NCBI RefSeq assembly: GCF_045037415.1
Contig: NZ_CP173438.1
DNA from: Escherichia coli
Lineage (GTDB): Bacteria > Pseudomonadota > Gammaproteobacteria > Enterobacterales > Enterobacteriaceae
Length of the DNA: 64,000 nucleotides
Reading direction: 5' to 3' (one strand)
The translations under genes and the position numbers were made by a program. The notes below the pieces were generated by a model. That model saw only the letters and a program-made list of their open reading frames with translations, made no database searches and was not told the origin of the DNA. This document shows, one piece after another, positions 15,658 through 46,773 of this stretch. Position 1 is the first letter of the stretch, and the number at the start of each line of letters is the position of its first letter.

Positions 15658-16213
15658 AAGTATTTATTTATGATTAATCAGAGGGTTTATGACAGAGAAA
15701 AGGATGTATATTTCTGAGTAAACATGTACAGGCCTATGGGGTGACTATTTAATGAGTAAATGCCGAATGATTTTCGGGGTGATGATTATAACTTGAGGAA
15801 AAATCCCAGCGTGGTTTGAGTAGTGTACCTGAGTGATATTTGTGTTATGTATGCATTGATTGTAGCAGAATAAATATAGTTCAGGCTAGTATAGTTTATG
15901 GTAGCTATGAGAATATATAATCTATTTTACCTATAAAATAATTTATATGTATGGGGTTGTTTTTTTAGGTTGTTTGTCTGTGCTTTTATATTCTGGAGAT
16001 GTGCCTTGTATATAGGATTGTTTGTTGGTTGTATTTTTTAATGTTGCACTGTTGTGAATTTTTATTTTGATATGATTATTTCTTTAGTATAAGGAGAGAA
16101 AGGAACGAGAAAGTTAAATCTATTTATCCTAATCGCAATTTCATTGTTTAAATAATCACTATGGATTAATATTTTTGCGACTCTGCTGAGTTACTGGTTT
16201 TAACTAGTGGTGT

Positions 16214-16242
16214 AAAAGGGATACCTTTTCGGTATCCCTTTT
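16214..16242 (-). terminator. Terminator hairpin downstream of fyuA
   Basis: Inverted repeat aaaagggataccttttcggtatccctttt next to the fyuA stop. Confidence 0.5.
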
Positions 16243-16249
16243 ACAATAA

Positions 16250-18271
16250 TCAGAAGAAATCAATTCGCGTATTGATACCGACGGTGCGACCCATATTGAC
16301 CTGCGCGACGGCGCTGCTGCCGTTCATGTAGCCATAGGTACGGTAACGACGGTCGAACAGGTTATCGACATAGACGGAAATGTTCATCCGTTCAGTCGCC
16401 TGCCAGCCCAGGCTGCTGTCCAGGGTGGCATAGGTGCCTTGCCGCAACTGGTTGTCGCCATCGAAATAATGCGGCCCGACCAGATTAACCGCCAGTCGGG
16501 GCATCAGTGCGCCATAGCGCGTATCAATCACGCCGTTCACGCTGCTTCCCGCGCCATAACGTGGTACGAACGGCACCCGGTTACCGTGATACAACTCACT
16601 GTCATTGGTGAATTCGGAACGGATCACGTTGCCATTGATATCCCATGACCAGCCTGGCGCAAACCGCCACTTCGCTTCAAGCTCAACGCCGGTGGCGTCG
16701 GCTTTACCCGCATTGCTTAATGTCTGCATCCCGACCGGGCCAGAGTAAAGCTGCATGTCTTTGGTGTGGGTATAAAACGTCGCGGCTTGCAGCGTGACGT
16801 CAGCGGTTTCGTAGCGGGTGCCAAGTTCATAGTTGATGGATTTCTCGGCGACGAACGGTTTGGCATCAAGACCCGCAGTAGGCACGATGTTGTACCCGGA
16901 AGGTTTATATCCCTGGGCTACACGGGTATACACTCTCCAGTCATCGGTCAGCATATAGCCTGCGGATAGCTGCCCGAGCACCTGATCGTCATTGCTCTTA
17001 CCCTGGTCGCCAAACGGGTTGCCGAGCATGCTGCCGTGATATTGTGTACTGGATTTATCATGCGAGAAGCGCACGCCGCCGCCGATATCAAAACGATCGG
17101 TTAAATGCCAGGTCAGGTCACTGTATGCGGCCAGCGTTTCAGCGGTGGTATAGCCGGTACTGCTTAAATAAGGCATTGTCGGCATGTCGTAGGCTGAATT
17201 TAACTTCTCGCGGGTGTTCTGCCGGTACAGCCCAAACACCATATCAACGGTACGCGCATCGCCCAGGGTTGCAGCGCGCAGCTCCTGCACATCCTGATTC
17301 CAGCGCTGAGGCATATTGACGATTAACGAACCGGAAGGGAAGGTGCGCGAATAATGCTGCTGCTGCCAGGCGCTGATCAGGTTGAAAACCCAGTCATCGG
17401 TGGTGTATTTCCCACTCAGGGTCTGGCTGTCAGTGCAGCGCCGCATGTACGGGTCTGGTGAACCATCGCTGATCGACAGCTTACGGCCCTTAATATCATT
17501 CCATCCCACATAGGCGTCCTGGGTGGCGCGGGTACATTCGCGTGAGGCGGCAAAGCCCATTTCCCAGGGCTGATCGTCCGGCGCCAGACGCAGTTTCACA
17601 TTCCCTATGCTGGCGCGGGTGCCGCCTAAGTCATCGCTTCCCGTCGCGGGGTTAATCATGTCGCCGTCATCAACTTGGCGTAACAGGGTGACGCTGCCGT
17701 ACAGCAGGCCATCCTGAATGGGGCCGCTCAGGTTGAACTTACTTCGATAACTGTCGCGGCTACTGACGCCGCCTTCAATATAGCCGCGCGGCGTGCTGTC
17801 CGGCTGCTGGGTGACGATGTTGATGATCCCGCCCTGAGCGCTTTTGCCATATAACGTTCCCTGTGGGCCTCGCAGCAACTCCACGCTTTGCACATCGGTA
17901 AGCGCCTGGATGGTGTTGGTGGAAAGCTGAGGGACGCCATCGACATACAGGGTGACGGCGGGGTTATAGAAGTCCTGCGCTGAAGAGACGCCGCGTAGCG
18001 AGATCGTCGAAAAAAGCATGTTGCCGCTATTTTCAATATTGAGCCCGGGCAAGACTCTGGGGAGTTTGTCGCTGGCGGTGACGCCGGCGTCGCTTAATTC
18101 CGGCGCGCTGACAACAGTAGATGAGACGTTGTTGGCTGATGCCGAGCGGGAAGATTGTTTACTGGCGGTAACCACCAGCGTGCTTTCGTCTTGCTGTGAA
18201 GTCTGGGCATTAGCAATGGCGGGGAGCAATAATCCCCCCAAGGCCAGAGGATAAAGCCGTGTCATTTTCAT
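16250..18271 (-). CDS. fyuA: TonB-dependent outer-membrane receptor for ferric yersiniabactin/pesticin
   Basis: 673-aa ORF with signal peptide and a TonB-dependent-receptor C-terminal ...RIDFF motif; position at the end of the ybt cluster. Confidence 0.9.
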   Translation of the reverse strand: MKMTRLYPLALGGLLLPAIANAQTSQQDESTLVVTASKQSSRSASANNVSSTVVSAPELSDAGVTASDKLPRVLPGLNIENSGNMLFSTISLRGVSSAQDFYNPAVTLYVDGVPQLSTNTIQALTDVQSVELLRGPQGTLYGKSAQGGIINIVTQQPDSTPRGYIEGGVSSRDSYRSKFNLSGPIQDGLLYGSVTLLRQVDDGDMINPATGSDDLGGTRASIGNVKLRLAPDDQPWEMGFAASRECTRATQDAYVGWNDIKGRKLSISDGSPDPYMRRCTDSQTLSGKYTTDDWVFNLISAWQQQHYSRTFPSGSLIVNMPQRWNQDVQELRAATLGDARTVDMVFGLYRQNTREKLNSAYDMPTMPYLSSTGYTTAETLAAYSDLTWHLTDRFDIGGGVRFSHDKSSTQYHGSMLGNPFGDQGKSNDDQVLGQLSAGYMLTDDWRVYTRVAQGYKPSGYNIVPTAGLDAKPFVAEKSINYELGTRYETADVTLQAATFYTHTKDMQLYSGPVGMQTLSNAGKADATGVELEAKWRFAPGWSWDINGNVIRSEFTNDSELYHGNRVPFVPRYGAGSSVNGVIDTRYGALMPRLAVNLVGPHYFDGDNQLRQGTYATLDSSLGWQATERMNISVYVDNLFDRRYRTYGYMNGSSAVAQVNMGRTVGINTRIDFF

Positions 18272-18319
18272 TGTTGTGAGTCCCTGTAAGACGGCGAAAC
18301 GCCAAAAATACCGACAATG

Positions 18320-18395
18320 GTGAATTGAAAATGATAACTATTTCTAATAGTGGTGCTACCCGAAACGGGTTTATTTCAACCTGTTTCGGGTCGGT
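18320..18395 (-). promoter_or_regulatory. fyuA promoter region with Fur-box-like sequence and YbtA-type inverted repeats
   Basis: gaaaatgataactatttc resembles the Fur consensus; cccgaaacggg ... ctgtttcggg repeat resembles the repeats upstream of irp2. Confidence 0.55.
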
Positions 18396-18401
18396 TTGCG
18401 C

Positions 18402-19979: not shown

Positions 19980-19982
19980 GCG

Positions 19983-20786
19983 TCACCTTTCTGAAGTACT
20001 GGGCTGTTTTTGCCACGCGGTCATTGCAGAAAATGCGTGGGGAAAATGGCGGACAATCTGCGTAAAAAAGGACCGGGCTTGTTGAATGGGATAGAAATGA
20101 TCGCCGTCAATCACCACCGGGCCTGTAACGTGGCTCAGCCACTGACGCCAGGCATCGACCTGCTGCCAGGAGGCTTCGCGATCGTGGCTGCCGCACAATA
20201 ACAGCGCAGGCGTGCGCAGCGGCGGACAGACGTCGGGCGAGTCGTAGTGATAGCTCTCGGTGGCGTAAAAATCAGCGCGCAGAAGAGGAAGAAACAGCGA
20301 CATTAATTCCTGGTTTTCCCGCAGTTCAGGAGAACATCCGCCAATGTCTATCAGCTCAGCGATAAAGTCGGCATCATCGCGATGGCTGAGCTGGCGTTCA
20401 GAATGCAGATGCGGGGCATGGCACCCGGAAATAATCAGTCCTTGTGGCGCAAGCCCCCGTTGCTCCAGAAGTCGGCAGGTTTCAAACGCCACCTGCGCCC
20501 CCATGCTGTGCCCGGCGAGTAAAAGCGGCGTGTCAGGCGATACGGATGCTTCCAGCTCGTTCGCCAGCAGTGCCGCCAGTTGTGTAATGTTTCTGAGCGG
20601 TTCCAGATGGCGAAGGCGATCGCGCCCCGGCCAGGTCACCAGAGAAAGCGCGCAATCAGCCAGTTGCTCAGCTTGCCAGTGGCGAAACGCGCTACTGCTG
20701 CCGCCAGCGAAAGGGCACATGACCAGATGCGCAGTATTGCCGTTCCGGGCGGGCCACAGCGGGATGCACATTGCAGATTGCGTCAC
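19983..20786 (-). CDS. ybtT: Type II thioesterase
   Basis: 267-aa ORF with alpha/beta-hydrolase GHSMG motif and GDHFYP; overlaps the ybtU stop. Confidence 0.85.
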   Translation of the reverse strand: MTQSAMCIPLWPARNGNTAHLVMCPFAGGSSSAFRHWQAEQLADCALSLVTWPGRDRLRHLEPLRNITQLAALLANELEASVSPDTPLLLAGHSMGAQVAFETCRLLEQRGLAPQGLIISGCHAPHLHSERQLSHRDDADFIAELIDIGGCSPELRENQELMSLFLPLLRADFYATESYHYDSPDVCPPLRTPALLLCGSHDREASWQQVDAWRQWLSHVTGPVVIDGDHFYPIQQARSFFTQIVRHFPHAFSAMTAWQKQPSTSER

Positions 20787-21883
20787 AGCGCCTCCTTATC
20801 ATCATCGTTGTAGAAACCGGCTAACCGGTCGTGGTGCGGCGGCGTCAGGCGTCTGATCTCCGCATTGCCGGTCTTACGTAAAATCTGCTGCCATAAACGT
20901 GATAACGCGATCTGATGTACGCTTTGGCAGGCCGCTGGTGGATGTTCGCCCGCCAGATGGCTGCGCAACTGGTGTAGCAACCAGCTGACGCCCTCCGGCC
21001 CGACGGTTTCGCAGCAGTCGCGCCAGCTCAGGGGCGCCGCGCTGCGCGTCAGACCCGGCAGATCGCGCAGGATCTCCGGTCTGCGGTAGAGGCTGTGGGC
21101 GTTCTCCTGATGGTCTGCGACAAACAGGCTGGATGACCAGATGACGGGGCCGTAGCTCGCCTCCAGCGAAAGATGACCTTCCGGCCAGCCCAGCAGCAGG
21201 CGGTGCATGATAAGGCTATGCATATCTGGATCGTCAGGATCGAGATAGCGCTGAAGCAGCAGGCAGGCTTCTCCCTCCGGCCAGAAGAGTCTCAGACAGT
21301 GAAAATCGCTAAAGCTGCCAACCACGTCGCACTCCACGGCGGCGGCATCAACGCCCAGAGCCAGCAACAACAAATCCAGAGTGGAGTAGAGCAACTGTCG
21401 GCTGGTGGTGGCGTGGACCACCTGCGGCGTCTTAGCCAGACAGCGACGCAGCTGCTGCGCATCGCGAAGCCATGTGCGTCCCGCGCGCGTATGCGGATAA
21501 AACGTGTTTACCCAATAGCAGCAGCCCTGTTCCTGCGCCAGCGTTTGTAAGGAACTGATGTCATCCGGGTGGAGGGGATGCTCCTGAATGACGTGTACGC
21601 CGCGCGTCAGAAAGTGTCTGGCAAGCTGCGTACCGGTTCCTCCGGCGACGGTCGAACGCACGACAATACAGGCGATATCCGGCATCCTGGTTATCTGTTC
21701 CGGCGAGGTATACAGCGGAATGCCAAACGCATGAGCCAGCTCTCTTGAACGGGCGCTTCCCTGCGCCAGCAGGCCGACCAGTTCCAGCCCCTCCGGGGGC
21801 TGCATAAAGGCATTCAGGTACATTTCGCCAAATTTGGCGCCCACAATCAGTACGCGTTGTTTTGGGGAGGCGGACGGCATCAT
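20783..21883 (-). CDS. ybtU: Thiazolinyl imide reductase
   Basis: Start at MMPSASPKQRVLIVGAKFGEMYLNAF gives 366 aa; the track ORF extends 20 codons further upstream. Confidence 0.85.
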   Translation of the reverse strand: MMPSASPKQRVLIVGAKFGEMYLNAFMQPPEGLELVGLLAQGSARSRELAHAFGIPLYTSPEQITRMPDIACIVVRSTVAGGTGTQLARHFLTRGVHVIQEHPLHPDDISSLQTLAQEQGCCYWVNTFYPHTRAGRTWLRDAQQLRRCLAKTPQVVHATTSRQLLYSTLDLLLLALGVDAAAVECDVVGSFSDFHCLRLFWPEGEACLLLQRYLDPDDPDMHSLIMHRLLLGWPEGHLSLEASYGPVIWSSSLFVADHQENAHSLYRRPEILRDLPGLTRSAAPLSWRDCCETVGPEGVSWLLHQLRSHLAGEHPPAACQSVHQIALSRLWQQILRKTGNAEIRRLTPPHHDRLAGFYNDDDKEAL

Positions 21884-22074
21884 AACGTGTTCTCCGGTTG
21901 CGTTGAGGTTGCGCAAAGCCAGCGCGTAATGTGTTGCGCACAAGCCTGAACGTGGGGGGCTTCCATCATGATTTGCCAGTGGCTGGCTTCAATCACAGCG
22001 TCGTCGGCGTTGTTTATCCAGCCCTGCCACTCGGTTTCTGCTGGCGTCCAGTGCGCGGGTTCTCCCGGCGGCAT
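21880..22074 (-). other. irp1: Displaced C-terminal ~60 codons of the irp1 thioesterase domain in a shifted frame
   Basis: Track ORF ...PPGEPAHWTPAETEWQGW...TL ends exactly at the ybtU start; removing one G from the run at about 22063-22066 would restore a single ORF of about 3163-3164 aa, the length recalled for HMWP1. Confidence 0.6.
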
Positions 22075-25000
22075 ACACCATGAGACAGGGGACCGGAACG
22101 CTTTCGCCCGGCGTATGCTCAGTCAGTAAACGCAGCAGATGCGCGATGTTGTCGAGCCACGTTTCTGCCGCTTGCAGCGTCAGGTTTTGCGACACCATAC
22201 CGGCCGTTTTAGCGAGGCTGATAAAGTCGGCAAGCTGGCTGTCGGGCGTCTGCTGGTCGAAATGTTCGGGCAGTGCCAGAGGCGTTTGTCCTTCGGCTAA
22301 CAGGCGCAGCAGGGCCGCCCGGTTTTCGCAACAGAAATCCTGTCGGCACACGGGATCGATTAACACCATCCGAACCTGCTCGCCTTTGGCGTACAGGCGT
22401 TGTGCGGCGCCCGCCGCAAGAAACGCGCCATACGACCAACCCGCCAGCACATAAGGGCCGTGAGGCTGCTGACGACGGATGCACCCGACATACTCATCGA
22501 TCATCTGGTCGAGCGTGGCAAAGCGCTGCGGCGATTTTGCTTGCAGGCCGAAAACGCGCCTGTTCAACGCGCTAGCGAGCGGCAGCCAGGCGCTGATATC
22601 GCCGTCTGAAGCGTGGAAGACAAACAGGGTTTCCTCACCGTCGCCCTGGCAAAGGGGTATCGGGTTGTCCTCTCCTGACGTAGCCGCCTGTAGATGGGCG
22701 CAGAAGTCGCTCAGCGTCGAATGGCTGAACAGATCCTGAAGGTTAGCCCTGGCAATCCCTCTCCGGTTTAGCTGCGCGACCATCCTTGTCGCCATCAGGC
22801 TGTCGCCGCCCAGTTCGAAAAAGTCGTGATGCCTTGCCACGGGGCGAGACAGCAGCGATTGCCAGAGTTCAGCCACCTGTTTTTCCAGTGCCGGATTCCC
22901 CCCGGCAACTGGCGTGGGTTTGGCTGGCTCAGTCGGCGCATCAGACGGGGCATGCAGCGGCGTAAATAACGCTTCTCTTTGCCGGATCTGTAAAATGGGC
23001 AGACCGGTGCCAAAGCGCTGCTGTAAATAGCGGCTCACGGCTTTTTTATCCGGGCGATTTACGCCAGGCGAACGCGCTACCAGCAGATGCTGGCGCAGCG
23101 GCGACGATTCCTGCGCGGGCCACGCCAGCTCGTTTGCAAACCCGGCCTGAACGAGAACCTCCTGCCATGCGGAGCGGGTGAGCATCGGTTTCTCATCACG
23201 GCGGCGGAAATCGCGGTATCCGCTTAATCCCTCAATAAAGCCCACGCTCGCCAGCTGGAATACGCTGTTTCGCTCCGTCGCTTCAACGATCAGCAAACGT
23301 CCGCCGGCTTTCAGCAACAGTTTTAATCTGCGCAACGTCTGGACGACATGGCTGGCGTCGTGGAGCACATTGACGGCAACGATCAGGTCGTAACCCGCCT
23401 CCGGGTGGGCGGTGAAATCCAGCGGCTGGTTGATGTCGAACAAGGCATAAGACACCTGCGATTCATCATGGAAACGGGCTCTGGCGTCATTGAGGAACTG
23501 CGCGGAGACGTCCGTGAAGTGGTACGACTGCCGCGTGTTCCGCGTGGCCTTCAGCACCGGCGCGGTAGTGGCTGCGGTTCCGGCGCCAACCTCCAGAATC
23601 CGTTCTGCGCTGCACAAGGCGGCAATCTGCGCGGTATAGCGATTCAGACAGGCGCTGGCGGGGTTGTCGCGATACAGCGCGTCGGTAACGCGATGCTGCT
23701 CGTTGAACAGCAATTCCAGCGGAGAACACTGCCCGGAGAAGAGGGCGTCGTGCCGGGCGATGCAGGTTTCCAGATACTGCGCCAGCGCCTGGCTCCATTG
23801 GCTTTGCGGGCACGCTTCCTGAGGCTCAGGAATCTCGCTGAGCGGAATGCGGCAGCGCCAGCTTTCACCTTCGCGGATTAACCACTCTCTTTCCGTCAGA
23901 CACTGTAGCCACTGGCGCAGCAGACGCTGGTGAGACGCTTGCGCGGACAGCGCCTGTACTACTGCGCTAAAGCGATGGGCGATCTCCGGCGTGGTAAACA
24001 GGCCGTGACGATTTAGCGTAGCCGCGATCCCCTGTAGCGCACGCGCCTCCAGCCAGCGCCAGGTCGCCTCCAGCTCATCAAGCTGCGCCTGCTCAGGCAA
24101 CGGCAGCGCCAGTTGGGTAAGTTCGTGCTCATCAGGCATCGCCGCTGATGGCGAAGGATCGTCGGCCATCACGATATCCAGCGTCAACGCGCCCTGTTCG
24201 GTTATTTCCGCTCTGGCCTGCCGGATGCCGGGGTATTCGAGCGTCGCCTGCTCAATATCCCGCAGGTCGTAGTCCGCCTGCGCGTTCAGCGGCCAGCGTC
24301 GGCGGGGAATGTGCCTGGCGATGCCGCTGGCGAGAGTCTTCAGGCTTTCAGGGGCGGCGATGACGGCTTGCAGGATGGCGCAATAGTCATTAAACATCGC
24401 CTCGGCAGCGCCGGGTTCCAGCACGTTGTCCATGCAGTACCAGCTAAACATCAACTCGCCGTCGCTCTCCATGACCTGATGATCCAGCCAGACCTGCGGC
24501 GTTTGCGTGAATACATAGCAGGGTTCGCCGAACAGATGGCTCATCGCCTGATCGATAGTCATGCCTTCCAGCGTCATCCCCAGCATACTGGTAAACACTA
24601 CCGGCATCAGCGGTTGACGTTGTGATCCGCGCAGGCGGCCCAGCTCACGGATCACCTCAACACCGTTCATTTCACTGTGCGCCATGTTTTGCCAGAGGCG
24701 CTGTTGGGTCTGTTGCATCTGCTCTTGCAACGTCACCGGCGCTGAGAAGTTAAAATCAACCAGCGTGACGGAGGTAAAATCACCAATCAACTGGTTGATT
24801 TGCGGATGGATCGGCTGGCGATTGAAGAACGTCAGGTTCAGCGTAAATGTTGTGGTACGGCTCCAGCGCTCAAGGGTGGCGGCAAACAGCGTGAGCAGCG
24901 CGGCAGACGGTGTGACGCCTTGCTGCTGCCAGCGCTGTTTCACGGCCTGCCATTCTGTCTTGCCGATCGTCGATTTGAAGGTGGTGAAGTGTGGCGTTTC

Positions 25001-28000
25001 CGGGGGCGTCTCAACCACCGGCAGCTCTGGCGCTAAGGGCAGTTGCGGCAGTTTTTCCTGCCAGTAATCCCAGGCATCGTGCCATGCCGATGTCTGTCGG
25101 CGCGCCTGTTCAGCCATCACATAATCACGGAAGGTAATAGCGAGCGGCGCCAGCGTTTCACCGCGCCAGACCTGCGCCAGGTCGTCCATCATGACTTTAA
25201 AACTCTGCACATCAAACTGCAAAAGGTCGAGGTTCATATGCAGACGGTAATGGCAATCGTCGATTTCGCTGACCACCAGCTCAAAAAGAGGCCACTGGTC
25301 GGCAGGCAAAACGCGATAGCTCAGTTCATGCCGCCGTTTTTCCAGTGCGATGCGCTGTTCTTCCGGGGAAAGCGCGCGCAGATCGTCACGCGGGATGTGA
25401 TACTCCGGCGTTGTCGCCAGGATTCGCTGCTGCCCGTCGGCATCAACCACCATACGCAACATATCGTGGCGTGCGATGAGCTGGTTCCATGCTTTCTCCA
25501 GTATGGCGAGATCGAACTCATCGTGGCGTTTATCCCACTCAAACAGGACGTGACAGGCGACGCCGCCATAGCCAATGAGGTGGGTTCGCCCCAGCCAGTA
25601 GGCGTGCTGAATGGGCGTCAAAGGGAAGGGCGCATAACGCTCGTCGGCGTCGTGCCGCAATACTTCCGGCTGCGAAGCGGCAGGCGTCGCCTCTGGCTTA
25701 GAACAGATAAGCTGCGTGAGTCCATGAGGAGACAGATCCTGCCACGCCCGTTCCGCATTGATGCGTACACCCAGGTAGTGCTGAATATCGCTACTGAGTT
25801 CAAGGAAGAGCAGCGAGTCCATGCCGAGTTGCAACAGATCCTGGTTTGGATGCAGTGACGCCGGATCGCTCAGCCTTAGCTGAACCGCAATCCGCTTTTT
25901 CAGCCATGCCATCACCGCTGTTTCATCGCTCAGGCTGCCGTTAAAGGCGTTGTCATCAGCAGGAGGAATGACCGGCGTTGCGGCTTTTTCTGTGGCGCTG
26001 ATGTTAAACAGAGCCTGTTGTAACGGGGGCATTTTGTCGGTAAAAACGCGCATCGCCAGTCGCCACGGGGCGCCGCGCATCACCGCCTGTTCCAGGTGCC
26101 AGCAGCCTTCGGCATCGCTTAACGCGCCCATACCTCGGCTGGCGAGCGTCGCCAGCATTTCCGGCGTGGCCGCCCGACCGCTTTCTCCCCATGCGCCCCA
26201 GGCGACAGAGAGCGTTTTCGGCGCATCAAGGGTGGAAAACTGCTGGGCCAGCCCGTCCAGGTAGCCGCAGGCCAGCGCATGGGCGCTCTGACCCGGCGCG
26301 CCGAGGGTGGCGGCAGCGGAAGAGTAGAGAATAAGATAGCGTCCGTCGTGGTTGCGCAGGGTTTGCAACAGTTGGCTTGCCGCCTGCGCTTTTACCGCGA
26401 AAACGGCAGCCAGCTGGTGGTCATCAAGCTCCTGCAAGGGCGCGTCAGCCAATACGCCAGCGGCATGAATCGCTCCGGCAATGCCGCCGTTGGCCGCCAG
26501 ATCGTCAAGAACCGTGGCCAGTTGCCCGGCATCGCCCACATCACAACGGCAGACGCGCGTCTGCCCGCCCTCCACGTCGCGTAGCCATGACTCATCCACG
26601 CGCGGTGCCAGCAGGGCGATGCGTCGCGCCCCTTTTTCTCTGAGCCAGTTCACGGCAAGGCGGCCTAATCCGCCAAACGCTCCGGTCACCAGATGCCAGC
26701 GGCTATCGCCGGTAAACACGTTTGCCGGTAATTCAGCGGCGCATCCCGTATTGGGCGTCAGTGAAGGGAGCCAAAGGGTGTCACCCCGTGCGGCGAGCCA
26801 GCGCTGTGATAGTGAGACTGCGCTCAACCCTTGATGCAGCGTTTCCCACGGGGTGTTTTCGGCGAGATCGATGGCGGCAAGCAACCGTTCCGGCTGTTCG
26901 TTGGCCGCGACGCGAAGCAAGGCCCATAGCGCGTGATGGGATGCAGAGAGTGCTTCATTTTCCTCGACTCGCCACGCGCGGCGAGTAACCACAATCAATC
27001 CGGCTGCGCTGGCGGTGAGCGCTGCTATCACTTTCTCCGCTAAGGCCAGCGTATCCTCGCTCTCCTCAACAATCATCAGTCGTGAAGAGGCGTGCGGATC
27101 GTGAATGATGCCGTATTGCGCCAGCTCGTCGCTGCGCGCAAGCGTACCGGCGCTGAAGCTAAAGGTAAGCGGATGGTCAATGCTGGCGACGTTGAGGGGC
27201 GTCCAGCGCCATTGATAATGCGTTTGCGGCGCAGGAAGAGGCGCGGCGGGCGATAGCGGCAGCCACTCGCCAGCAGGATGACGGGCTTCAACGCGCATCT
27301 GACCGCGGGAAAAGGCTTCGTTTTGCCAGCTTAAGCGAACCTTCCCCAGCCACTCCGGGGCGGCGACGGGGGGCGGTTCCACAGGCAGAGCGTCGCCATG
27401 ACGCTGTGAAAGCAGACGCCATGCCTCCTGCCAGCGGGCGTTAAACCGTTCGGGCTGACCTGCGCAATCAGACCAGTCGGCGAGATAATCACCGTTATCC
27501 GTCAGCGCCTGCCCCAACACGGGTTCTGATGGCGCGGTGAATGTTACGGCGCTAACCGCCTGACCGGGCAGCGTGGCGAGAATGATATGTTCGCTCATCC
27601 CGGCGGTCGGGCTGCCATCCTGCGGTAGCCACGCCACTTTGCTGAATCCGGCGTGGCGGCACTGTTGTTGCCACTGAGCGGTGGTGAGGAATAACTCACC
27701 TTCGCGGGCGTCGAGATCCTGTAGCGGAAGAACCAGCGGGCCGAAAACGAAGTCAAACAGACGCATTGGCTGGGTGATTTCGCGCATCAGCAGGCGCCCG
27801 CCCGGCTTGAGCAGGGGGCGCAGATTATCGAGCGTGCGGCCAATATGGCGGGTGGCGTGAATCACGTTCGCTGCCACGATAAGATCGTAAGACTGTGCCT
27901 GGAAACCCTGAGACTGCGCCTCTTTTTCGAGATCCAGCTCGCTATACTTCACAAAATCATAGTCGGCGAATTTCTGCTGGGCGCGACGGGTGAACAGCGC

Positions 28001-31000
28001 CGAGATATCGGTGAAATGGTACTCCAGTGCCGGAACGCCGTTGAGTTCCGGCAGCAGCCACGCGGTGGTGCCGCCGGTTCCGCCGCCAACTTCAAGAATA
28101 CGCAACGGCTGGCGGGGCTGACGCGTCTGGACAATGCCGCGTAATACCCCGGCGGCGATTTGGTTGAAATAGCGGCCAAAGCTGAATTCCTGATACAGCA
28201 CTTCCACGCCGTCGGAGGCGCTTTGCGGGAAGATAATCGCCACCGGTTCTTCCGCGCCGCTCATCATTTCATATAACCGATCGCCGGCACGGGCGATGGT
28301 GTCGGGAATAGCCTGAAAACCTTCACAATAACCGGCAAGTTCCGTCAGCAGTGATTCCCGCTGTTGATGTTCAATGGGGCGGGCGCGGACGTATCGCCCG
28401 TCGGTGCAGCGGTAATCGCCGTCGACCACGCAGTTATTCAGCAGGCGCTGGAGTAGCTGCTGGTAGCGGGGCAGCAGACGTCCACGGCGCATGATGGTCA
28501 TGGCGTCCACGCCGTTCTCAATGGCATCGCCGGTACAGCGTTGTACCAGTTGATCGACGTAGATGGCGTGCAGTCGCGTGGCGCACTGTTTAAGCGCATC
28601 CAGGCGAGGGAGATCGAGCGCTGTCGCGGCGCGACTCGCCACCTCCAGCCCGGCAGACAGCGCTGCGTCGGCAGGCTCGCAGGCCGGGGAGACGCGCTCT
28701 TTCCAGTAACGTTCAGTATCAAACGGATAACATGGCGCAGCGATACGTTGTCCATCGCCCGCCAGCAGGTCGGCCCACGGTAGGGCGACGCCGGCAGCGT
28801 AAAGCTGGAGCAGGGCCTGATTGAGGACATCGCTCGCCTCTTTGTTACGCCGGGCGCTGGCTATCCAGTATGCGTTATCGCGGTATTCGCGCTGCCCGCA
28901 AGCAACCAACTGGGCATCGGGCCCCATCTCCAGAAAAACGCGGGCGCCGAGCTGATGCGCCACCTGAATACTCTGGATAAAACGCACCGGCTGGCGCATG
29001 TGTCGGCGCCAGTAATCCGCCTGGTTGAGCGTTGACTCATCAATGACGTCGGCGGTGAGCGTGGAAATAATCGGTATTTGCCCCGGCTCCGCGTGCAGTC
29101 CCGCGCAGGCGTCCTGGAACCGATCGAGTATCGGCTCCAGTAAAGCGGAGTGCGCCGCACCGGTTACGCTCAGGCGACGATAGTTAATGTCATGCTGCGA
29201 GAGCGTGGCGCAAAATACCGCGAGACGGGCTTCCGGCCCGGAAAATACCGTATGTTGCGTACCGTTGTTGGCGGCGAGATCCAGCTCAAACTGGCGAGCC
29301 AGCGGCATCAGCGTGTCTTCGTCTGCAAATACCGCCACCATCGCGCCGCTTGCGCACTGCTGCATTAGCGCGCCGCGCCGACAAACCAGTGGCATGACCT
29401 GTTCAATCGTATAGTGTCCGCAGACAACGGCAGCGGCAAATTCACCGACGGAATGCCCAATGGCGAAGTCTGGCTTCAGTCCTTCAGCACGCCAGTGCGC
29501 CGCCATCGCGATTTCAAACGCGACAATCGCCGGCTGCGCCCAGGCCATATTGTCCAGCTGCGCCGAATCGGGGTTAAACATCGCTTCGCGCAGTGACGGC
29601 GTGAGCATTTCGCTACAGGCGGAAAAACAGCGATCCAGCGTGTCGGCAAACGCCGTTGAGTGCTGGTACATCGTTTGACCCATAGTGCGCCAGTGCGAGC
29701 CCTGGCCGGTAAACAGCCACACCTGCTTGCCGCTGGCGCCGTGGCCGCTGTAAACCAGCGCCCCCGATTTCTCACCGGCCCAGGCGCTGAGCGCCTCGGC
29801 GGTTTCACGGTTTAATGGCGCCGCCAGGCGGAAGGGGAGATCGAGACGGCGCGCGTGCAGGGCTGTGAAGGCCAGAGAGCTGGCATCCGCATTCTCTCTC
29901 AGCGCCCCGGCATAATCCGTCGCCAGCCGCCGCAACGCGCTGTCGCTGGCGGCGCTGAGCAGCAGCGCGGTACTTTTTCTGCCGCTATCCGTATTGGGGA
30001 GGCGCGCGTTGAGCGCGTCGGGCAGCGAGGCGACGATCATATGGCAGTTGGTGCCGCCAATACCAAAGGAGGAGACGCCCGCATAGCGCATTTCGTCCTG
30101 CCATGCCTGTGCCGACACCGGTATGGTAAAGGGGCTCTCTTCAAGTTTCAGCGCCGGGTTGGGGGTGTGAAAATTCAGTAAGGGAGGAATTTGCCCGCGA
30201 CTGACTGCCAGAACGGTTTTCAGCAGTCCGGCAATGCCCGCCGCGGTATCCAGATGGCCCATGTTACTTTTCACGGAACCGAGCGCACAGCGCTGATCCT
30301 GCGGGCGAGGCGCATAGACGTTGCGTAACGCTTCAATTTCAATCGCGTCGCCCAGCGGTGTGCCGGTGCCGTGGGTTTCAATGTAACCTACCTGCCTGTC
30401 GTCGATGGCCGCCAGCATTAACGCCTCTTCGATGACTGCTTGTTGCCCTGCGACGGAAGGGGCGGTATAGCCGACCTTTCTGTTGCCGTCGTTGTTGACC
30501 GCGCTGGAGAGGATCACCGAGATAATCGGATCGCCTGACAGCAGCGCGTCTCTCAGGCGACGCAGCACCACGCAGCCGAGACCGTTACCGGCCCAGGTGC
30601 CCTCAGCCGAGGCGTCAAAGGGACGACAGTGACCATCAGGAGAGAAAATCATTCCGGGCTGGTAGCGGTAGCCTGCCTGCTGGGGGAAAGAGAGCGCCAC
30701 GCCGCCGGCAACCGCCATATCGGATTCGCCTGCGCGCAGGCTTTCACAGGCCAGATGCACGGCAACCAGCGAGCTGGAGCAGGCGGTCTGTACCGATAAC
30801 GCCGGGCCGTGCAGGTTGAGTTTGTACGCGGCGCGGGTGGCAATATAGTCTTTATCATTGCCCATCAGAGATTGCAGACCTTTTACCTGCGCGACTTCTG
30901 TCACGTTCAATGCTTCGCGACCGGGGTAGGTACTCATCCGGGAAGAGGCGAAAACGCCGGTCTTATGGGGGACGGCGCCGGGGGCATAACCGGCATGTTC

Positions 31001-31372: not shown

Positions 31373-31459
31373 AATCGGTCCCGTTTCCTAAGATTCACAA
31401 AGTCAATGGAACGCCATGCGTTCGCGATGGCGTTCCGGGGAAAATCAGTTTGCTTCGCG

Positions 31460-34400
31460 CTATATCCGCCGCTGACGACGGCGAACAGGGCGAGGTCGTT
31501 TTGTTTTCTCCACCGTGGCGACGCCGGCCAGATAATCGGCCAGGGCAGCAGGAGAAGGGTGGGTGAAGAGGTCAAGCAACGTCAGGGTGGAAAATTCGTG
31601 ACGTTGTAACAAAACGTGCAGTTGCACCAGATTCAGCGACGTTGCGCCCGCCTCAAAGAAGTTTTCTGCGGGCGTGACAGACTCGCCAACCACCTCGCGG
31701 AAGGCGTCGCAAATCAGGCTGACGGTGCTCTCGTCCGCCGCAATGTGTGGCTGAGAGTGCTCAGGGCATACGCGCGGTGAGCGCTCTGCGCATTGCCCTG
31801 CGTGTTTAACGGGAGGCACCAGCGCGGCGAGCGGCAGTTGCCAGCCGCTTTCATCCTCGGCCATTCGGTTTAGCAATGCGCAATACTGTTCAAACTGGCG
31901 CTCCACCTGCCCGGCAGGAAACAGCGCGGCGACAAAATCCCAGTTAAAGCGCAGTTCGCCTTCGGATTCATAAATCTGGTGATCGAGCCAGACCTGCGGC
32001 GTCTGGGAGATGCCCCAGACCGGTTTGAGCAGATTACGCCGGGCGAGGAAGTTATCCTGCTCAAAGCCCAGCGCGCTGGTAAAGACGACGGGCATCGGAA
32101 CGGCTGGCACGTTTTGCCGTTGCGCCAGTTGACGCATCACGCGGATGGCTGACACATCGCGGTGGTTGAGGTTCTGGCTCAGCCGCTGCTGTAGTGACTG
32201 CGCGCTGTGCAGCCAGCTTTCGCCGGGATGCCAGCTCAGCAGCATCAGCGAGGTGAAATCGCCCAGAATCTGGTTGATTTGCGGGTGCAGCGGTCGCCTG
32301 TCGAAAAGCGTAAGGTTAAGCGTGAACTCAGGCTGTGCACTCCATGCAGAGAGAACCGTTGACCACACCGACAACAGTACGGCCGACGGGGTGAGATGGG
32401 CGTCAGCCGCCCGTTTTTTCAGCCGATGCCAGCGCGTGCTGTCCAGTGCGCCGTTCAGGCGGGCGAAGCGCGGTGTTTCAACCTCCTGAGGCAAGCAGCG
32501 CAGCGGCAACGCAGGCGCCGGAGGAATATCATCAAGCTGCGCCTGCCACCATGCCAGAGAATCTGGATTGGGCGACTGTAGCGAGGGTTGTTGCAGATAA
32601 TCCCTGAAGGTGACGGGCAGCGGCGGAAGCAGCTGTTGCGGGTAGCGGTAGCCGTGCTCCAGCTCCGCCAACAGAATCTGCATGCTCAGCCCGTCAAGTA
32701 ACAGGTTATCCAGACACAGCCACAGGCGGGCGGGCATCCCGTCAACGTAACCGACCTGGAGATCGAATACCGGCCAGACTTCGGGGTTGAGTACCTGATG
32801 GGCCAGTTTTTCGCGCACCTGCAACGCCTCTTCAGGCGTATGGAGGATGTGTGCGGGTATTACCCAGCGAGGCGTCTGTTCGAGCACCTGTTGCTGTCCA
32901 TCACGCACGACGGCGCGTAGCATATCGTGGCGGGCGATTAATCGGTTCCAGACCGTCTCCAACCGGGTGAGATCCAGATCGGCAATTTCAAATTCAACAA
33001 AGAAATGTGAGCCGACGCCGCCCAGGGCAAAGCCCGGCTGACGCCCCACTAGGTAAGCCTGCTGCACGTCGGTAAGCGCAAAGGGCTGGTAGCGATCTTC
33101 AGGGGAGTGGACGAATGGTTGTTCGACCGGGACGTCGGTTTTCCGCAGCGTGGCGGCAAAATCCGCCAGCCGGGGATGATTAAACAGGTCGCTTAATTGC
33201 GCTTCATAACCTGCCTGATGAAGTTGCCCGGTCAGACGGGTCGCCAGCAGGCTATCGCCGCCTTGCTGGAAGAAGTCGGTTTCTCTGGTGACATTGCCAG
33301 TTGATAAGAGTTGCTGCCAGAGGGCGGCAACCTGTTTTTCAATGTCGCCCTGGGGTAAATCCGCTTCGGCCGGGTTTTCCGCTTCAGGGGTATGACGACG
33401 CTTCAGCGCCTGGTAGTCAATTTTCCCGTTAGCCGTCAGCGGTAAGGCGTCGAGGAAGACGATCCGTTGCGGCACCATCCACCCCGGCAGACGCCCGGCG
33501 AGGGCGGCCTGAAGTTGACGGGGATCGCGGCGCACCTGCCTGTCAGGACATTGTACGAGGAAGCGTTGTAACCCCGCGACCTCATCGCCATGCTGACAGT
33601 TGAAGCCGGCCGCGCTAAATAATGCCGCCCAGTCGGCGCTGTTATGCAGCAAGGCCTCCGGCTGCCCATTGGTTAACAGGAGCGTGCTGAGTAGGGCGGA
33701 CGGCGTTAACTGGCGAAACTCCATCACGTAGAGCAGCGCGCCGGGAACGGCAAGCTGTTGTAATGTCGCAAGGAGCCCGGGATCTTCCGGCAGCAGACGA
33801 TGCAGGGCGTTATTAAGCCAGATAATGTCCGCCGAGTGAGCGTGCGCCGCCAGCGTGTCTGCATTCCAGAGGGACAGACGGGCGCCAGGCCAGGGGGCGA
33901 GCCTCTGCCGGGCGCTCAGCAGCATCTCCTGGCTCTGCTCAAGCCCGACATACTCAATCTGTCCGGCGTTGAGCTGTGCTAACAGCGATTCTGCGGCGCG
34001 GCCAGTGCGGGTTCCCACCTCAAGCAGGCGCACCGGGCGCTGTAAGCGCTGTGCAAGCTGTTGGCAAATTGTCGCCAGTTCCTGAATATACGGGGCGCTG
34101 GCCGGATGGTTAAAGGCCAGGCTTTCCGGCGACCACTGCGCGTCGTTCAGTAACGACAGTTCGTTACGGGCACCGCGAAGAATTTGCGATAACGTTAAAT
34201 CATGTCCGCTGAAGTGCGGGTGCTCATCCTCGCGTTCTTCACCAGCGCAGACCTGATAACCTTCAGCAGCGGGCTTCAGTCGCCGTTGTGTCACCAGAAA
34301 TGCTAACCAGCGTTCCACCACGGCCTGCCAGCGCGGCTGGATAGCGAGTGAGTTCATCAGGGGGAGAGGATCGGCGCCAGCGGTGTGACCCGGCTTCAGT

Positions 34401-37567: not shown

Positions 37568-37605
37568 TCTTCCTCCTGATGGCACGTCTTACCGAAAAGC
37601 ATTAC

Positions 37606-37680
37606 TCATATGAGAATAATAATTATTAACAATTGGATGCTACCCGAAACGGGTTTATTTATGCCCGTTTCGGGTTGGTA
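37606..37680 (-). promoter_or_regulatory. irp2 promoter region: Fur-box-like sequence plus YbtA-type inverted repeats
   Basis: gagaataataattattaac resembles the Fur consensus; ctacccgaaacgggtttatttatgcccgtttcgggttgg is a near-perfect inverted repeat. Confidence 0.6.
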
Positions 37681-38717: not shown

Positions 38718-38883
38718 GACCTGGTTATCTCCCTGTGGCTTAGACCAATGCGGGTATAAATAGAACCGAATGGGGTAGATGAGTTATTGATAATGGTTAT
38801 TATTCACATTAATTCTCAGAACGCCACCCTGAATTGTCGTTTTTGGCGTCCGTAAAAATTCATCAGGAAATTCAGTTACTCCC
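38718..38883. promoter_or_regulatory. Divergent ybtA / ybtPQXS promoter region with Fur-box-like sequence
   Basis: gagttattgataatggttattattcac resembles the Fur consensus; lies between divergently oriented ybtA and ybtP. Confidence 0.5.
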
Positions 38884-40686
38884 ATGTCATCTCAATCATC
38901 CAATACTGAATCGCTGTCCCGATTTCCTCTTTGGCAGGTGATTACACCGGTTCGCAGGAAGGTTATTTTAGCTATGGCGCTGGCGGGGCTGGCGGCATTA
39001 ACCAGCCTGGGGGCGCTCCTTTTTCTGGCGTGGAGCCTGCGTGACATTCGCGCGACGCCTGACGCTATTCCGGCCTGGCCGCTGGGCGGCGTGATCGGCT
39101 GCGTGGTCTTAACTTTTGTTCTGCGCTTACAGGCGTTCAACACCTCTCATTACGCGGCTTTTCATCTGGAGAACATTCTGCGCAGCAGGTTAGCCCGTAA
39201 AGCATTGCAGCTTCCGCCTGGCGTGTTACAGCAAATGGGCAGCGGGTCAGTGGCGAAAGTGATGCTGGATGACGTGAAGTCGTTACATATTTTTGTGGCC
39301 GACAGCACGCCGCTCTATGCCCGCGCGATCATCATGCCGCTGGCGACAATCGTTATCTTGTTCTGGCTGGACTGGCGGCTGGCAATCGCGACGCTGGGGG
39401 TACTGGCGTTTGGATCGGTTGTTCTCGTGCTCGCCCGCCAGCGTTCGGAAGATATGGCTCAGCGTTATCATAAGGCGCGCGAGCAGGTTAGCGCGGCGGT
39501 TATTGAGTTCGTGCAGGCCATGCCCGTGGTGAGAACGTTTGATAGCGGCAGCACCAGTTTTTTGCGCTATCAACGCGCCCTTGAAGAGTGGGTCGATGTG
39601 CTCAAAACCTGGTATCGCAAAGCCGGTTTTTCAGCGCGTTTTTCCTTCTCGATTCTGAATCCTCTCCCGACCCTGTTTGTCCTGATCTGGTCGGGATACG
39701 GCCTGTTGCACTATGGCAGTTTCGATTTTATCGCGTGGGTGGCCGTTTTACTGCTGGGCAGCGGAATGGCCGAAGCCGTAATGCCAATGATGATGCTCAA
39801 TAACCTGGTCGCGCAAACGCGTTTAAGCATTCAGCGTATTTATCAGGTTCTCGCGATGCCGGAGTTATCGCTGCCGCAGTCTGACCAGCAGCCGCAAGAG
39901 GCGAGCATTACCTTTGAGCAGGTGAGCTTTCATTATCCGCAAGCGCGTACTGGCGCCGCGTTGCAGGAGGTGAGCTTTCATGTGCCTGCCGGGCAAATTG
40001 TGGCGCTGGTCGGGCCAAGCGGCGCCGGAAAAAGCACCGTGGTGCGCTTGCTGCTGCGTTACGCCGACCCGGACAAAGGCCATATCCGTATTGGCGGCGT
40101 GGATCTGCGTGATATGCAGACGGACACCCTGATGAAGCAACTCTCGTTTGTGTTTCAGGACAACTTCCTTTTTGCCGACACGATAGCCAATAACATTCGT
40201 CTGGGCGCGCCGGATACGCCGCTGGAGGCGGTTATAGCGGCGGCCAGAGTGGCGCAGGCCCATGATTTTATTAGCGCTCTGCCAGAAGGTTACAACACTC
40301 GAGTCGGGGAACGTGGGGTATTTCTCTCCGGCGGCCAGCGGCAGCGCATTACTATCGCCCGGGCGCTTTTGCAGGATCGCCCCATCCTGGTGCTCGATGA
40401 GGCGACGGCGTTTGCTGACCCGGAAAACGAAGCGGCGCTTATCAAGGCGCTCGCGGCGGCCATGCGTGGCCGGACGGTCATCATGGTCGCGCATCGTCTC
40501 TCAATGGTGACTCAGGCCGATGTGATATTGCTGTTTTCCGACGGACAGCTCAGGGAAATGGGGAACCATACGCAACTGTTGGCGCAGGGCGGCCTGTATC
40601 AACGGCTCTGGCAACACTATCAGCAGGCGCAGCATTGGGTGCCGGGTGGAACACAGGAAGAGGTGATGGAAAATGAAAGACAATAA
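38884..40686 (+). CDS. ybtP: ABC transporter permease/ATPase fusion (yersiniabactin uptake)
   Basis: 600-aa ORF with N-terminal TM domain and C-terminal Walker A GPSGAGKST, ABC signature LSGGQRQR. Confidence 0.9.
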   Translation: MSSQSSNTESLSRFPLWQVITPVRRKVILAMALAGLAALTSLGALLFLAWSLRDIRATPDAIPAWPLGGVIGCVVLTFVLRLQAFNTSHYAAFHLENILRSRLARKALQLPPGVLQQMGSGSVAKVMLDDVKSLHIFVADSTPLYARAIIMPLATIVILFWLDWRLAIATLGVLAFGSVVLVLARQRSEDMAQRYHKAREQVSAAVIEFVQAMPVVRTFDSGSTSFLRYQRALEEWVDVLKTWYRKAGFSARFSFSILNPLPTLFVLIWSGYGLLHYGSFDFIAWVAVLLLGSGMAEAVMPMMMLNNLVAQTRLSIQRIYQVLAMPELSLPQSDQQPQEASITFEQVSFHYPQARTGAALQEVSFHVPAGQIVALVGPSGAGKSTVVRLLLRYADPDKGHIRIGGVDLRDMQTDTLMKQLSFVFQDNFLFADTIANNIRLGAPDTPLEAVIAAARVAQAHDFISALPEGYNTRVGERGVFLSGGQRQRITIARALLQDRPILVLDEATAFADPENEAALIKALAAAMRGRTVIMVAHRLSMVTQADVILLFSDGQLREMGNHTQLLAQGGLYQRLWQHYQQAQHWVPGGTQEEVMENERQ

Positions 40687-43748: not shown

Positions 43749-43775
43749 TCCGCGAATAACACAGAGAGGTAAGGG

Positions 43776-45080: not shown

Positions 45081-45273
45081 GAGTAACTGTTTTCTAACCT
45101 CACAACCAGACTGTCCAAAGACAATTGAGTCGCTCTTTGATTCCTCTGTGACTCTATTGTCTTCTTTTGGGATAAAATAGGTGTTTTTCGTCATGAAGTT
45201 GATAAAAGTCTATATAGAACCACCTCTTGTGGAGGTGGTGGTAATTTGCCAGAGTGTGGGATTCGTTAGTATA

Positions 45274-46536
45274 CTATGGGATAAACTTATTTTTACCAAT
45301 TGTATAAGGCGGTGCATAAGATTCTCGGCATGCTTCCAGATAATCCGACCACCACTGCATCATCGCTTTGCGGGCTTCCAGGTGCTCTGCCTTATGAATA
45401 TAAGCCATGCGCACGGTATTGCGCTCCTGATGACTCATCTGGCGTTCTACTGCGTCCTTTGCCCATAAACCCGATTCCATCAGCGCACTGCATGCCATTG
45501 CCCGGAAGCCGTGACCGCAGATATCCTTTTTCGTGTCGTAACCCATCACCCGCAGTGCCTTATTGACCGTGTTTTCACACATTGGCTTATACGGGTTATG
45601 GTCGCCGGGGAAGATCAGTTCATTATTACCGGTGATATCCTTAATCTGTTTCAGAATGGCGATGGACTGTTCTGAGAGGGGGACGATATGCGGCATTCGC
45701 ATTTTTGCCCCGCGGCCGGAATAACGCACGCCAATAATGGGTTCTCGCGTCGCGGGTATCGTCCAGACTCGGTTTGTGAAATCAATCTCTGACCAGCGGG
45801 CGAAACGCAGTTCACTGGAGCGAATGAACACATGCAGCATCAGCAGAACGGCATGCCGGGTCAGTTCACGGCCCTGATGATATGCCCCAATACGTTCAAG
45901 CAGTTCAGGCAGCCGCTCCAGCGGCAGGGCAGGATAGTGCCGTCTGACAGGAGGTGTGGTCACGCCGCCAAGGTTTGCTGCAGGGTTCGTATCGATTAAC
46001 TCCTGATGGACCGCATGGCGCATTATGTTACTCAGGTGCTGCCGTGTGCGGGACGCAACCTCCAGCAGACCTTTTTCCTCGATCCCTTTCAGCAGGTCAA
46101 TGAAATGACGGGGTTTAAGTTCTGATACAGGTAGGTTCCCGATGACCGGAAAGATGTGATTGTTCAGGCTGGCAAGCAGACGGTCGGCGGTGTTCTGCGA
46201 CCATTTCCTGTTACTTTTATGCCACGCCAGCGCCACGTTTTTAAAAACTTTCTCCGGTGTTCGTGAGCCACGTACAGCAGCCCGCTGCTGTACCGGGTTG
46301 ATATTCAGCGCCAGCATTTTACGGATACCTTCACGTTGCTGTCGCGCATCAGACAGGGAGATGGCTGGATAGGTACCCAGCGCAATGCGGGATTCTTTAC
46401 CGCTAATACGGTATTTGAGATACCAGTGGCGGGAGCCACCCGGCTTGACCCGCAGATACAGACCGTGAGAATCGGAGACTTTAAAGGGTTTATCAGAAGG
46501 CTTGAGGGTGCGGATTTTTGCGCTGGTAAGGGACAT
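45274..46536 (-). CDS. int: P4-type tyrosine integrase of the HPI
   Basis: 420-aa ORF (MSLTSAKIRTLKPSDKPFKVSDSHGLYLRV...) with tyrosine-recombinase C-terminal domain, adjacent to tRNA-Asn. Confidence 0.85.
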   Translation of the reverse strand: MSLTSAKIRTLKPSDKPFKVSDSHGLYLRVKPGGSRHWYLKYRISGKESRIALGTYPAISLSDARQQREGIRKMLALNINPVQQRAAVRGSRTPEKVFKNVALAWHKSNRKWSQNTADRLLASLNNHIFPVIGNLPVSELKPRHFIDLLKGIEEKGLLEVASRTRQHLSNIMRHAVHQELIDTNPAANLGGVTTPPVRRHYPALPLERLPELLERIGAYHQGRELTRHAVLLMLHVFIRSSELRFARWSEIDFTNRVWTIPATREPIIGVRYSGRGAKMRMPHIVPLSEQSIAILKQIKDITGNNELIFPGDHNPYKPMCENTVNKALRVMGYDTKKDICGHGFRAMACSALMESGLWAKDAVERQMSHQERNTVRMAYIHKAEHLEARKAMMQWWSDYLEACRESYAPPYTIGKNKFIP

Positions 46537-46697
46537 ATGGGGGTCACTCCATTATCGAACTAACCTGACCCCAGATTTGACCACCAATTTTTCCCGATGC
46601 GTAGGGTAAAATCAAAATGCACTGAGAAGAGTTTTCACACTAACCTGTTGAATCAACATCAGATAAAGATTCGCAAGGATGCATGAAAACAGAAAAT

Positions 46698-46773
46698 TGG
46701 CTCCTCTGACTGGACTCGAACCAGTGACATACGGATTAACAGTCCGCCGTTCTACCGACTGAACTACAGAGGA
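46698..46773 (-). tRNA. asnT: tRNA-Asn (GUU); HPI attachment tRNA
   Basis: Fourth copy of the 76-nt tRNA-Asn sequence, about 160 bp from the island integrase gene. Confidence 0.9.

Follow-up and report, generated by a model that had tools for sequence, protein, structure and literature searches.

The stretch of DNA considered here, hereafter the window, comprises 64,000 nucleotides of an Escherichia coli genome (contig NZ_CP173438.1), and positions 15248–46696 within it are, with a probability of roughly 93%, occupied by the type of Yersinia High Pathogenicity Island (HPI) that is common in E. coli, the island of the siderophore yersiniabactin, in a form that is fixed at the tRNA gene asnT. 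Both the island and its immobilised state are already known, and this copy is structurally ordinary; what is new is the exact position of a deletion junction, the finding that the open reading frame (ORF) next to the island is a fusion of island and yeeJ sequence, and the flagging of two probable sequence errors. The importance of the locus beyond such housekeeping is small, and among the islands that serve virulence and iron uptake in extraintestinal E. coli this is one of the most thoroughly described.

The island extends over 31,449 bp with a GC content of 57.7%, against 46.8% in the left flank, and these values support the identification through their agreement with the 31 kb and 57% GC at which the pathogenicity island (PAI) PAI-asnT of extraintestinal pathogenic E. 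coli genomes is listed (PMC7545054). It matches annotated E. coli genomes at 99.97%, with every gene named by the Prokaryotic Genome Annotation Pipeline (PGAP) in strain SK1144, and positions 1–47870 of the window as a whole align with SK1144 at 99.97% identity over 47.9 kb, with 13 substitutions and 3 gaps. The eleven ybt, irp and fyuA genes stand in the canonical order int-ybtS-X-Q-P-ybtA-irp2-irp1-ybtU-T-E-fyuA and have canonical sizes, and all of the island genes are open except irp1. In the established system their products account for the synthesis of yersiniabactin (YbtS, YbtE, HMWP2, HMWP1, YbtU and YbtT) and for its uptake through the outer-membrane receptor FyuA, the inner-membrane ATP-binding cassette (ABC) transporter YbtPQ, and YbtX. 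An earlier note made from the letters alone, which we call the sequence-only reading, had named a yersiniabactin HPI at asnT, and this identity is upheld by the gene order, the integrase, the attachment (att) core and the near-identical annotated genomes; its judgement that the system is known and not novel is likewise confirmed: out of 5426 complete E. coli genomes 2000 have the same junction, and the fixed state was published in 2009. Its description of the gene set as complete holds insofar as all eleven genes are present and in order but fails for irp1, which as sequenced has a 1-bp insertion at 22060, and the gene content, which it had proposed to compare with that of the canonical island, departs from it only in this frameshift, probably an artefact.

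The gene order along the window is cobT-ldtA-asnV-nac-cbl-asnU-yeeO-asnW-yeeN-amn-shiA-yeeL, a yeeJ remnant, the island, asnT, mtfA, serU and a lambdoid prophage, so that the two flanks, mtfA-serU and yeeJ-yeeL-shiA, are those of asnT in K-12 and identify the insertion site as asnT and not asnU, asnV or asnW. On the asnT side, homology to K-12 reaches 46694, and on the other side it is not picked up again by blastn until 15247, within yeeJ. The 17-bp att core CCAGTCAGAGGAGCCAA, the sequence given in Table 1 of PMC2801613, is matched exactly at 46697–46713, in the 3' end of asnT. Beside it lies an intact integrase whose P4-like character, already noticed by the sequence-only reading, is borne out by its Pfam architecture (Arm-DNA-bind_3, Phage_int_M and Phage_integrase) and by an alignment to phage P4 Int that covers 99% of its length at 48.9% identity (E=2e-124); the int interval is identical to that of SK1144, where it is annotated as WP_000060157.1. 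Three database entries filed as phages, Klebsiella phage ST101-KPC2phi6.3 and the Escherichia phages vB_EcoS-689R5 and vB_EcoM-606R7, also encode integrases 98–99% identical to that of the island; in two of them the gene lies right at the record's end, and the entries may be prophage predictions that take in an island border.

The end of the island beyond fyuA is where our account departs most from the earlier one, which had drawn the border at 15658 and taken the next ORF for yeeJ. Island DNA in fact reaches 15247/8, 411 bp further left and inside the presumed yeeJ ORF: the 1002 bp at 15248–16249 have no K-12 counterpart by blastn and, since K-12 homology restarts only at 15247, are not backbone; of the 5426 complete E. 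coli genomes, 2258 contain them, and these are in essence the genomes with the island. The junction lies at 15246|15248, the base at 15247 being common to both parents, and reads GATACCCCCCTG|TTACGCAAACTC on the coding strand, with the switch point in a three-way alignment at ...CCCCCCTG|TTACGC.... A 121-bp probe across it finds full-length matches in the 2000 genomes already mentioned, whereas HPI-negative genomes match only up to 15247 and the type of the island found within an integrative and conjugative element (ICE) matches only from 15241. The ORF formerly taken for yeeJ is thus chimeric, with its first 118 codons from the first island ORF downstream of fyuA, which has 308 residues in the ICE type and matches no Pfam or NCBIfam family, and with the fusion into yeeJ at ...LRKLNQFRTF...; Pfam and NCBIfam recognise the inverse-autotransporter part only. 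The base at 15247 corresponds to about nucleotide 219 of K-12 yeeJ, and 12793–15247 retain about 2.4 kb of the 7-kb K-12 gene (K-12 yeeJ nucleotides 219–550, 4244–4718 and 5002–6677), a heavily deleted remnant that the island deletion severs from its own start and signal peptide. It follows that yeeJ is inactivated in every strain with the 15247/8 junction, and that the annotated 'inverse autotransporter' ORF is a fusion with an island gene; truncation of yeeJ beside this hotspot is frequent, as described in the YeeJ paper (PMC5595812).

Between this ORF and fyuA lies the AT-rich, ORF-free stretch that the sequence-only reading had correctly noted: 15601–16249 has 31.3% GC and no ORF of at least 30 codons except for an upstream extension of the neighbouring one. 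It is island DNA belonging to a variable right arm and not a border scar. Homology of the fyuA-side DNA ends at 16217 in Salmonella diarizonae and at 16250 in Klebsiella oxytoca and K. michiganensis, so that the core shared across genera stops at the hairpin that follows fyuA and 15248–16216 forms the stump of the AT-rich arm. The same limits, together with a GC content of 31% that is unlike the 58% of the island core, would also be expected if the stretch were native backbone, namely the asnT-yeeJ spacer, and the island ended at the fyuA terminator; this we consider practically negligible, for the stretch resembles neither the K-12 spacer nor the 5' end of yeeJ (MAFFT alignment of the K-12 asnT-yeeJ spacer with 15500–16260 gave noise only), it is confined to the 2258 island-carrying genomes, and an ICE-type island at another tRNA gene, asnV, has it directly adjoining fyuA. 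Within 15200–16300 a consensus terminator scan made no call, the hairpin after fyuA included, and promoter-like sites were fewer than in shuffled sequence; Rfam had no match in the AT-rich arm. The ICE type has about 207 additional AT-rich bases in this arm (28.5% GC; ICE-type positions 6720–6926), flanked by the imperfect 13-bp repeats GGGGTGGTTTTTTT and GGGTTGTTTTTTTT, where the common type has a single copy at 15954–15966, which suggests a small deletion between short repeats.

The copy in the window can be compared with the described forms of the island. It does not differ structurally from the common E. coli HPI at asnT (PAI IV of strain 536 and PAI-asnT of CFT073 and UTI89; Schubert et al. 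2009), with which it shares the asnT site, a length of about 31 kb, 57% GC, the gene order, the intact P4-like integrase, the unique deletion that extends from the fyuA border into the backbone and the loss of the repeat; the only differences are the 1-bp irp1 insertion, probably an artefact, and a synonymous single-nucleotide polymorphism (SNP) at 23198 that is private to this copy. The ICE-type HPI (ICEEc1 of ECOR31 and the island of strain CB7286, with the related ICEKp1 and HPI-ICEEh1) is more than 99.6% identical to the window not only in the core from int to fyuA but also over the first kilobase that follows fyuA, where codons 1–118 of the 308-residue ORF lie. In CB7286 this ORF is intact and is followed by IS1, an AlpA-family gene, DUF2857, TraR and a VirB-type type IV secretion system (T4SS); the full ORF, the AlpA-family gene as a candidate recombination directionality factor (RDF), the T4SS, MobC and the coupling protein, defence cargo and the distal repeat are all kept by the ICE type and missing from the window. 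Its island also sits elsewhere, at asnV in CB7286 as the position of its distal repeat beside ldtA indicates, in contrast to asnT in the window. The defence-like cargo of CB7286, at 21500–32200 of its own sequence and near the distal end of the island, includes a restriction endonuclease, a retron Eco8 effector and the accompanying reverse transcriptase, an ABC-three-component system and a DUF4917 protein; a second att-like repeat with 1 mismatch occurs 2.3 kb before the final one. The HPI of Yersinia pestis and Y. pseudotuberculosis has the same biosynthetic, transport and regulatory genes, the same att core and an integrase of the same family (PMC2704930, PMC2801613, PMC10136090), but keeps both repeats and hef and can excise, unlike the window island, which lacks the fyuA-side repeat and any RDF homologue.

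The absence of this repeat bears directly on mobility. At up to 3 mismatches, CCAGTCAGAGGAGCCAA occurs in the window only at the four asn tRNA genes, with no copy at the fyuA end, and within 12700–16300 its best match has 6 mismatches, the modal value in shuffles; the lack of a second copy of the tRNA 3' end between fyuA and yeeJ, noted by the sequence-only reading, is confirmed, and the degenerate direct repeat for which it had advised a search is not there at better than chance level. The same search finds the repeat in the ICE-type island of CB7286, 31–34 kb beyond fyuA and beside ldtA. With tblastn the ICE AlpA-family protein has no homologue in the window (E>1), the ICE AlpA-family, DUF2857 and TraR proteins together give E>0.4 everywhere, and no T4SS ORF lies between fyuA and yeeJ. 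Excision of the Yersinia island requires Int together with the RDF Hef (PMC2704930). With a single att copy and no RDF, the intact integrase would have no partner site and the island would be fixed, and its resemblance to the immobilised E. coli form, proposed by the sequence-only reading, is substantiated by the identity of the deletion junction in 2000 genomes and by the description of Schubert et al. (PMC2606025), who reported, for every HPI-positive strain tested from the E. coli reference collection (ECOR) except ECOR31, that the direct repeat is lost and that a deletion of the fyuA border extends into the backbone. That the integrase is intact, and that excision is documented for related islands (PMC2801613), could be taken to mean that the element is still mobile and is excised by way of a diverged attR at the fyuA end; such mobility appears exceedingly improbable when no att copy within 3 mismatches lies outside the tRNA genes and the best local match is at chance level, when the junction falls inside two coding sequences that share at most 1 bp, when no RDF homologue is found in the window, and when the repeat search succeeds in the ICE-type island.

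For the fixed island, the following history can be proposed. The element would have entered by integrase-driven site-specific recombination between the 17-bp core at the 3' end of asnT and the att site of the island. A later single deletion, from codon 118 of the first ORF past fyuA to about codon 74 of yeeJ, would have taken the rest of the right arm with attR, the gene for the excisionase (RDF) and whatever conjugation module there was, and with them the asnT-yeeJ spacer and the start of yeeJ. Thereafter, as Schubert et al. 2009 (PMC2606025) report, the island would spread only through homologous recombination of large segments on its flanks.

The one lesion in the gene set is an extra T at 22060 relative to SK1144, which turns GGTCTC into GGTTCTC on the plus strand within irp1. 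It shifts the frame of HMWP1 at codon 3105 of 3163 and leads to a stop at 21989, leaving a protein of 3127 residues that lacks the EASHWQIM segment of the terminal Pfam thioesterase/alpha-beta hydrolase domain, a segment taken to hold the catalytic His of the thioesterase. The terminal thioesterase of HMWP1 releases the finished siderophore (PMC10136090). The insertion is found in 12 of 2266 irp1-positive genomes, in which PGAP marks irp1 as 'frameshifted', isolates from Egypt and Taiwan among them. A second single-base insertion, and the only other one relative to near-identical genomes, is an extra T at 47796 in serU (tRNA-Ser(CGA), 47765–47855, plus strand), where it produces an anticodon loop of 8 nucleotides, a call of 'tRNA-???' by ARAGORN and a score below threshold for the Rfam tRNA model. 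Both insertions have the same context, GGT^CTC becoming GGTTCTC at the 5' edge of a GC hairpin, and the serU insertion occurs in 10 of 5419 genomes, all of them among the assemblies Esc1–Esc27, which are of nearly equal length and have a private fyuA SNP in common.

Within this clone the two insertions assort freely. The irp1 insertion is present in nine assemblies (Esc2, 3, 5, 9, 13, 14, 20, 23 and 26) and the serU insertion in ten (Esc1, 5, 7, 11, 12, 19, 21, 22, 25 and 26); both occur in Esc5 and Esc26 only and neither in Esc27, so that all four combinations exist inside one clone, and Esc5 and Esc27 differ over 50 kb at the equivalents of 22060 and 47796 and nowhere else. Strain 98194 has the irp1 insertion on a different island haplotype, and the prophage of the window differs from that of the Esc genomes, yet the window has both insertions. 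Recurrence in one motif independently of descent indicates a systematic base-calling error, and we conclude that the irp1 frameshift is most likely, and the serU insertion probably, a base-calling artefact, which may, as a guess, arise at a methylated GGTCTC site; the organism accordingly probably makes yersiniabactin. A genuine frameshift, in a decaying island that still expresses FyuA and the transporters but does not release finished yersiniabactin, is a minority possibility that we hold to be unlikely. It draws on the presence of the insertion in the sequence as given, on the truncation ahead of the EASHWQIM motif in a domain with a known releasing role, on the PGAP flags for the same lesion in isolates from two countries, and on a site that is not a long homopolymer; it has to contend with the rarity of the frameshift among irp1-positive genomes, its coming and going inside the Esc clone without regard to the other insertion, which has an identical 7-base context, the lack of any further difference between Esc5 and Esc27 and its recurrence on different haplotypes; for such a pattern, either a site that is no repeat would have to mutate back and forth very frequently or the base calling would have to err systematically. 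If the frameshift were true, the strain would be a siderophore non-producer able to take up the yersiniabactin of its neighbours. Very unlikely, too, is a real extra T arising by recurrent motif-directed insertion that flips within the clone, which would make a reversible switch of yersiniabactin release and a tRNA-Ser with an 8-nucleotide loop. We rejected the idea that the 8-nucleotide-loop serU suppresses the irp1 frameshift: between the insertion and the new stop we read no TCG codon in frame, and the insertions assort independently. GGTTCTC insertions can thus imitate an irp1 pseudogene and an unassignable serU, and they should not be taken for biology without read-level support.

In the established system the ybt genes form four transcription units, repressed by Fur under iron-rich conditions and activated by YbtA, an AraC-type regulator that acts through paired repeats lying immediately upstream of the Fur sites. 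The 21-bp YbtA-type repeat ATAAACCCGTTTCGGGTAGCA has two exact copies in the 64 kb (0 expected by chance), solely upstream of fyuA and irp2, each preceded by an inverted partner ACCCGAAAC(N)GG, and the two promoters are 80% identical over about 70 bp; a degenerate copy, compared with these in Table 1, faces ybtP. Fur-box-like 19-mers adjoin each YbtA repeat. No site in the window matches the Fur consensus at 3 mismatches or fewer, and as sites emerge only at 4–6 mismatches we relied on enrichment and not on strict consensus matching: of the window's 23 sites with at most 6 mismatches, 5 fall within the 576 bp of the three promoter regions, against an expectation of 0.2, an enrichment of about 24-fold. 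The reverse complement of 38789–38807 is, moreover, one base off the published Fur site in the ybtA promoter of the Salmonella plasmid pESI, to which, according to the heading of section 3.5 of that paper, its authors report direct Fur binding (PMC11225919). The Fur-box-like sequences and YbtA-type repeats that the sequence-only reading had placed upstream of fyuA, irp2 and ybtP are therefore present as sequence motifs, and their occurrence far above chance, with the match to a published site, leads us to predict control of the three promoter regions by Fur and YbtA.

Several points weigh against the reading of the island as the common, fixed and functional type. As written, irp1 is a pseudogene, and if this were true there would be no normal release of yersiniabactin and the description 'functional siderophore island' would be wrong for this strain. 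Regulation, siderophore production and the failure to excise we infer from sequence and literature. The ancestor in which the deletion occurred may have been of either the ICE type or the Yersinia type, and the comparison at the fyuA stop retrieved no Yersinia locus: an exact 26-mer across the stop had no match in the searched genome contigs, and a codon-degenerate pattern of the last 13 FyuA codons and the stop recovered only Klebsiella oxytoca, K. michiganensis and Salmonella diarizonae.

Table 1. Positions in the window of the island genes, promoter elements and border features
Feature	Position	Strand	Remarks
yeeJ remnant, pseudogene	12793–14924	-	K-12 yeeJ patches between large internal deletions; PGAP: frameshifted, internal stop, incomplete
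Chimeric ORF, 249 aa	14851–15600	-	codons 1–118 from island ORF, continued in the same frame by yeeJ from about codon 74; ended by frameshift
AT-rich variable right-arm remnant, about 33% GC	15248–16216	.	no K-12 match; common only to E. coli ICE-type islands
End of conserved core, 8-bp GC hairpin GGGATACC/GGTATCCC	16217–16249	-	directly after fyuA stop; terminator-like by eye
fyuA, TonB-dependent yersiniabactin receptor, 673 aa	16250–18271	-	intact
fyuA promoter elements	18327–18391	-	partner ACCCGAAACAGG 18380–18391; exact 21-bp repeat 18354–18374; weak Fur-box-like site 18327–18345, 6 mismatches
ybtE, salicyl-AMP ligase, 525 aa	18402–19979	-	
ybtT, type II thioesterase, 267 aa	19983–20786	-	
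ybtU, reductase, 366 aa	20783–21883	-	
irp1 (HMWP1), polyketide synthase/nonribosomal peptide synthetase	21880–31372	-	frameshifted as sequenced
irp2 (HMWP2), nonribosomal peptide synthetase, 2035 aa	31460–37567	-	intact
irp2 promoter elements	37612–37674	-	partner ACCCGAAACGGG 37663–37674; exact 21-bp repeat 37638–37658; Fur-box-like site 37612–37630, 4 mismatches
ybtA, AraC-type activator, 319 aa	37758–38717	-	open frame; PGAP name in SK1144
ybtA/ybtP divergent promoter elements	38760–38807	+	YbtA repeat 38760–38780, 14/21 vs fyuA/irp2 copy; overlapping Fur-box-like sites 38783–38807, 4–5 mismatches
ybtP, ABC transporter, 570 aa (PGAP)	38974–40686	+	frame permits 600 aa from 38884
ybtQ, ABC transporter, 600 aa	40673–42475	+	open frame; PGAP name in SK1144
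ybtX, major facilitator superfamily transporter, 426 aa	42468–43748	+	open frame; PGAP name in SK1144
ybtS (irp9), salicylate synthase, 434 aa	43776–45080	+	open frame; PGAP name in SK1144
int (intB), P4-like tyrosine integrase, 420 aa	45274–46536	-	intact, no internal stops
asnT, tRNA-Asn(GUU)	46698–46773	-	ARAGORN; Rfam tRNA 72.6 bits; integration target; 3' end with att core

Two neighbouring regions deserve brief mention. To the left, yeeL, a gene of glycosyltransferase family 9 at 11580–12632 (plus strand), is an intact ORF of 350 codons here and a pseudogene in the K-12 annotation. To the right, a lambdoid prophage inserted in serU fills 47871–64000, with an integrase at 47908–48933 (minus strand) that PGAP marks as 'frameshifted' in matching genomes, genes for an exonuclease, Rha, DicB/DicC, replication protein P, hokD and rem, and Rfam matches to DicF, C4, isrK and sok. 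In serU the 3' half, with compensatory G/C changes in its variable arm, and the 3' flank differ from those of K-12 and of the prophage-free SK1144 and were thus brought by the phage. Only 52 genomes match at least 80% of the prophage stretch, ST131 strains being the best matches, and the prophage is identical to that of O25b:H4-ST131 genomes except at 3 aligned positions, from which we conclude that the strain is probably ST131-like. Relative to ST131 strain 4433, a 1-base deletion paired with a 1-base insertion lies at 60967–60970, just after hokD, and may be a small sequence error or a local variant.

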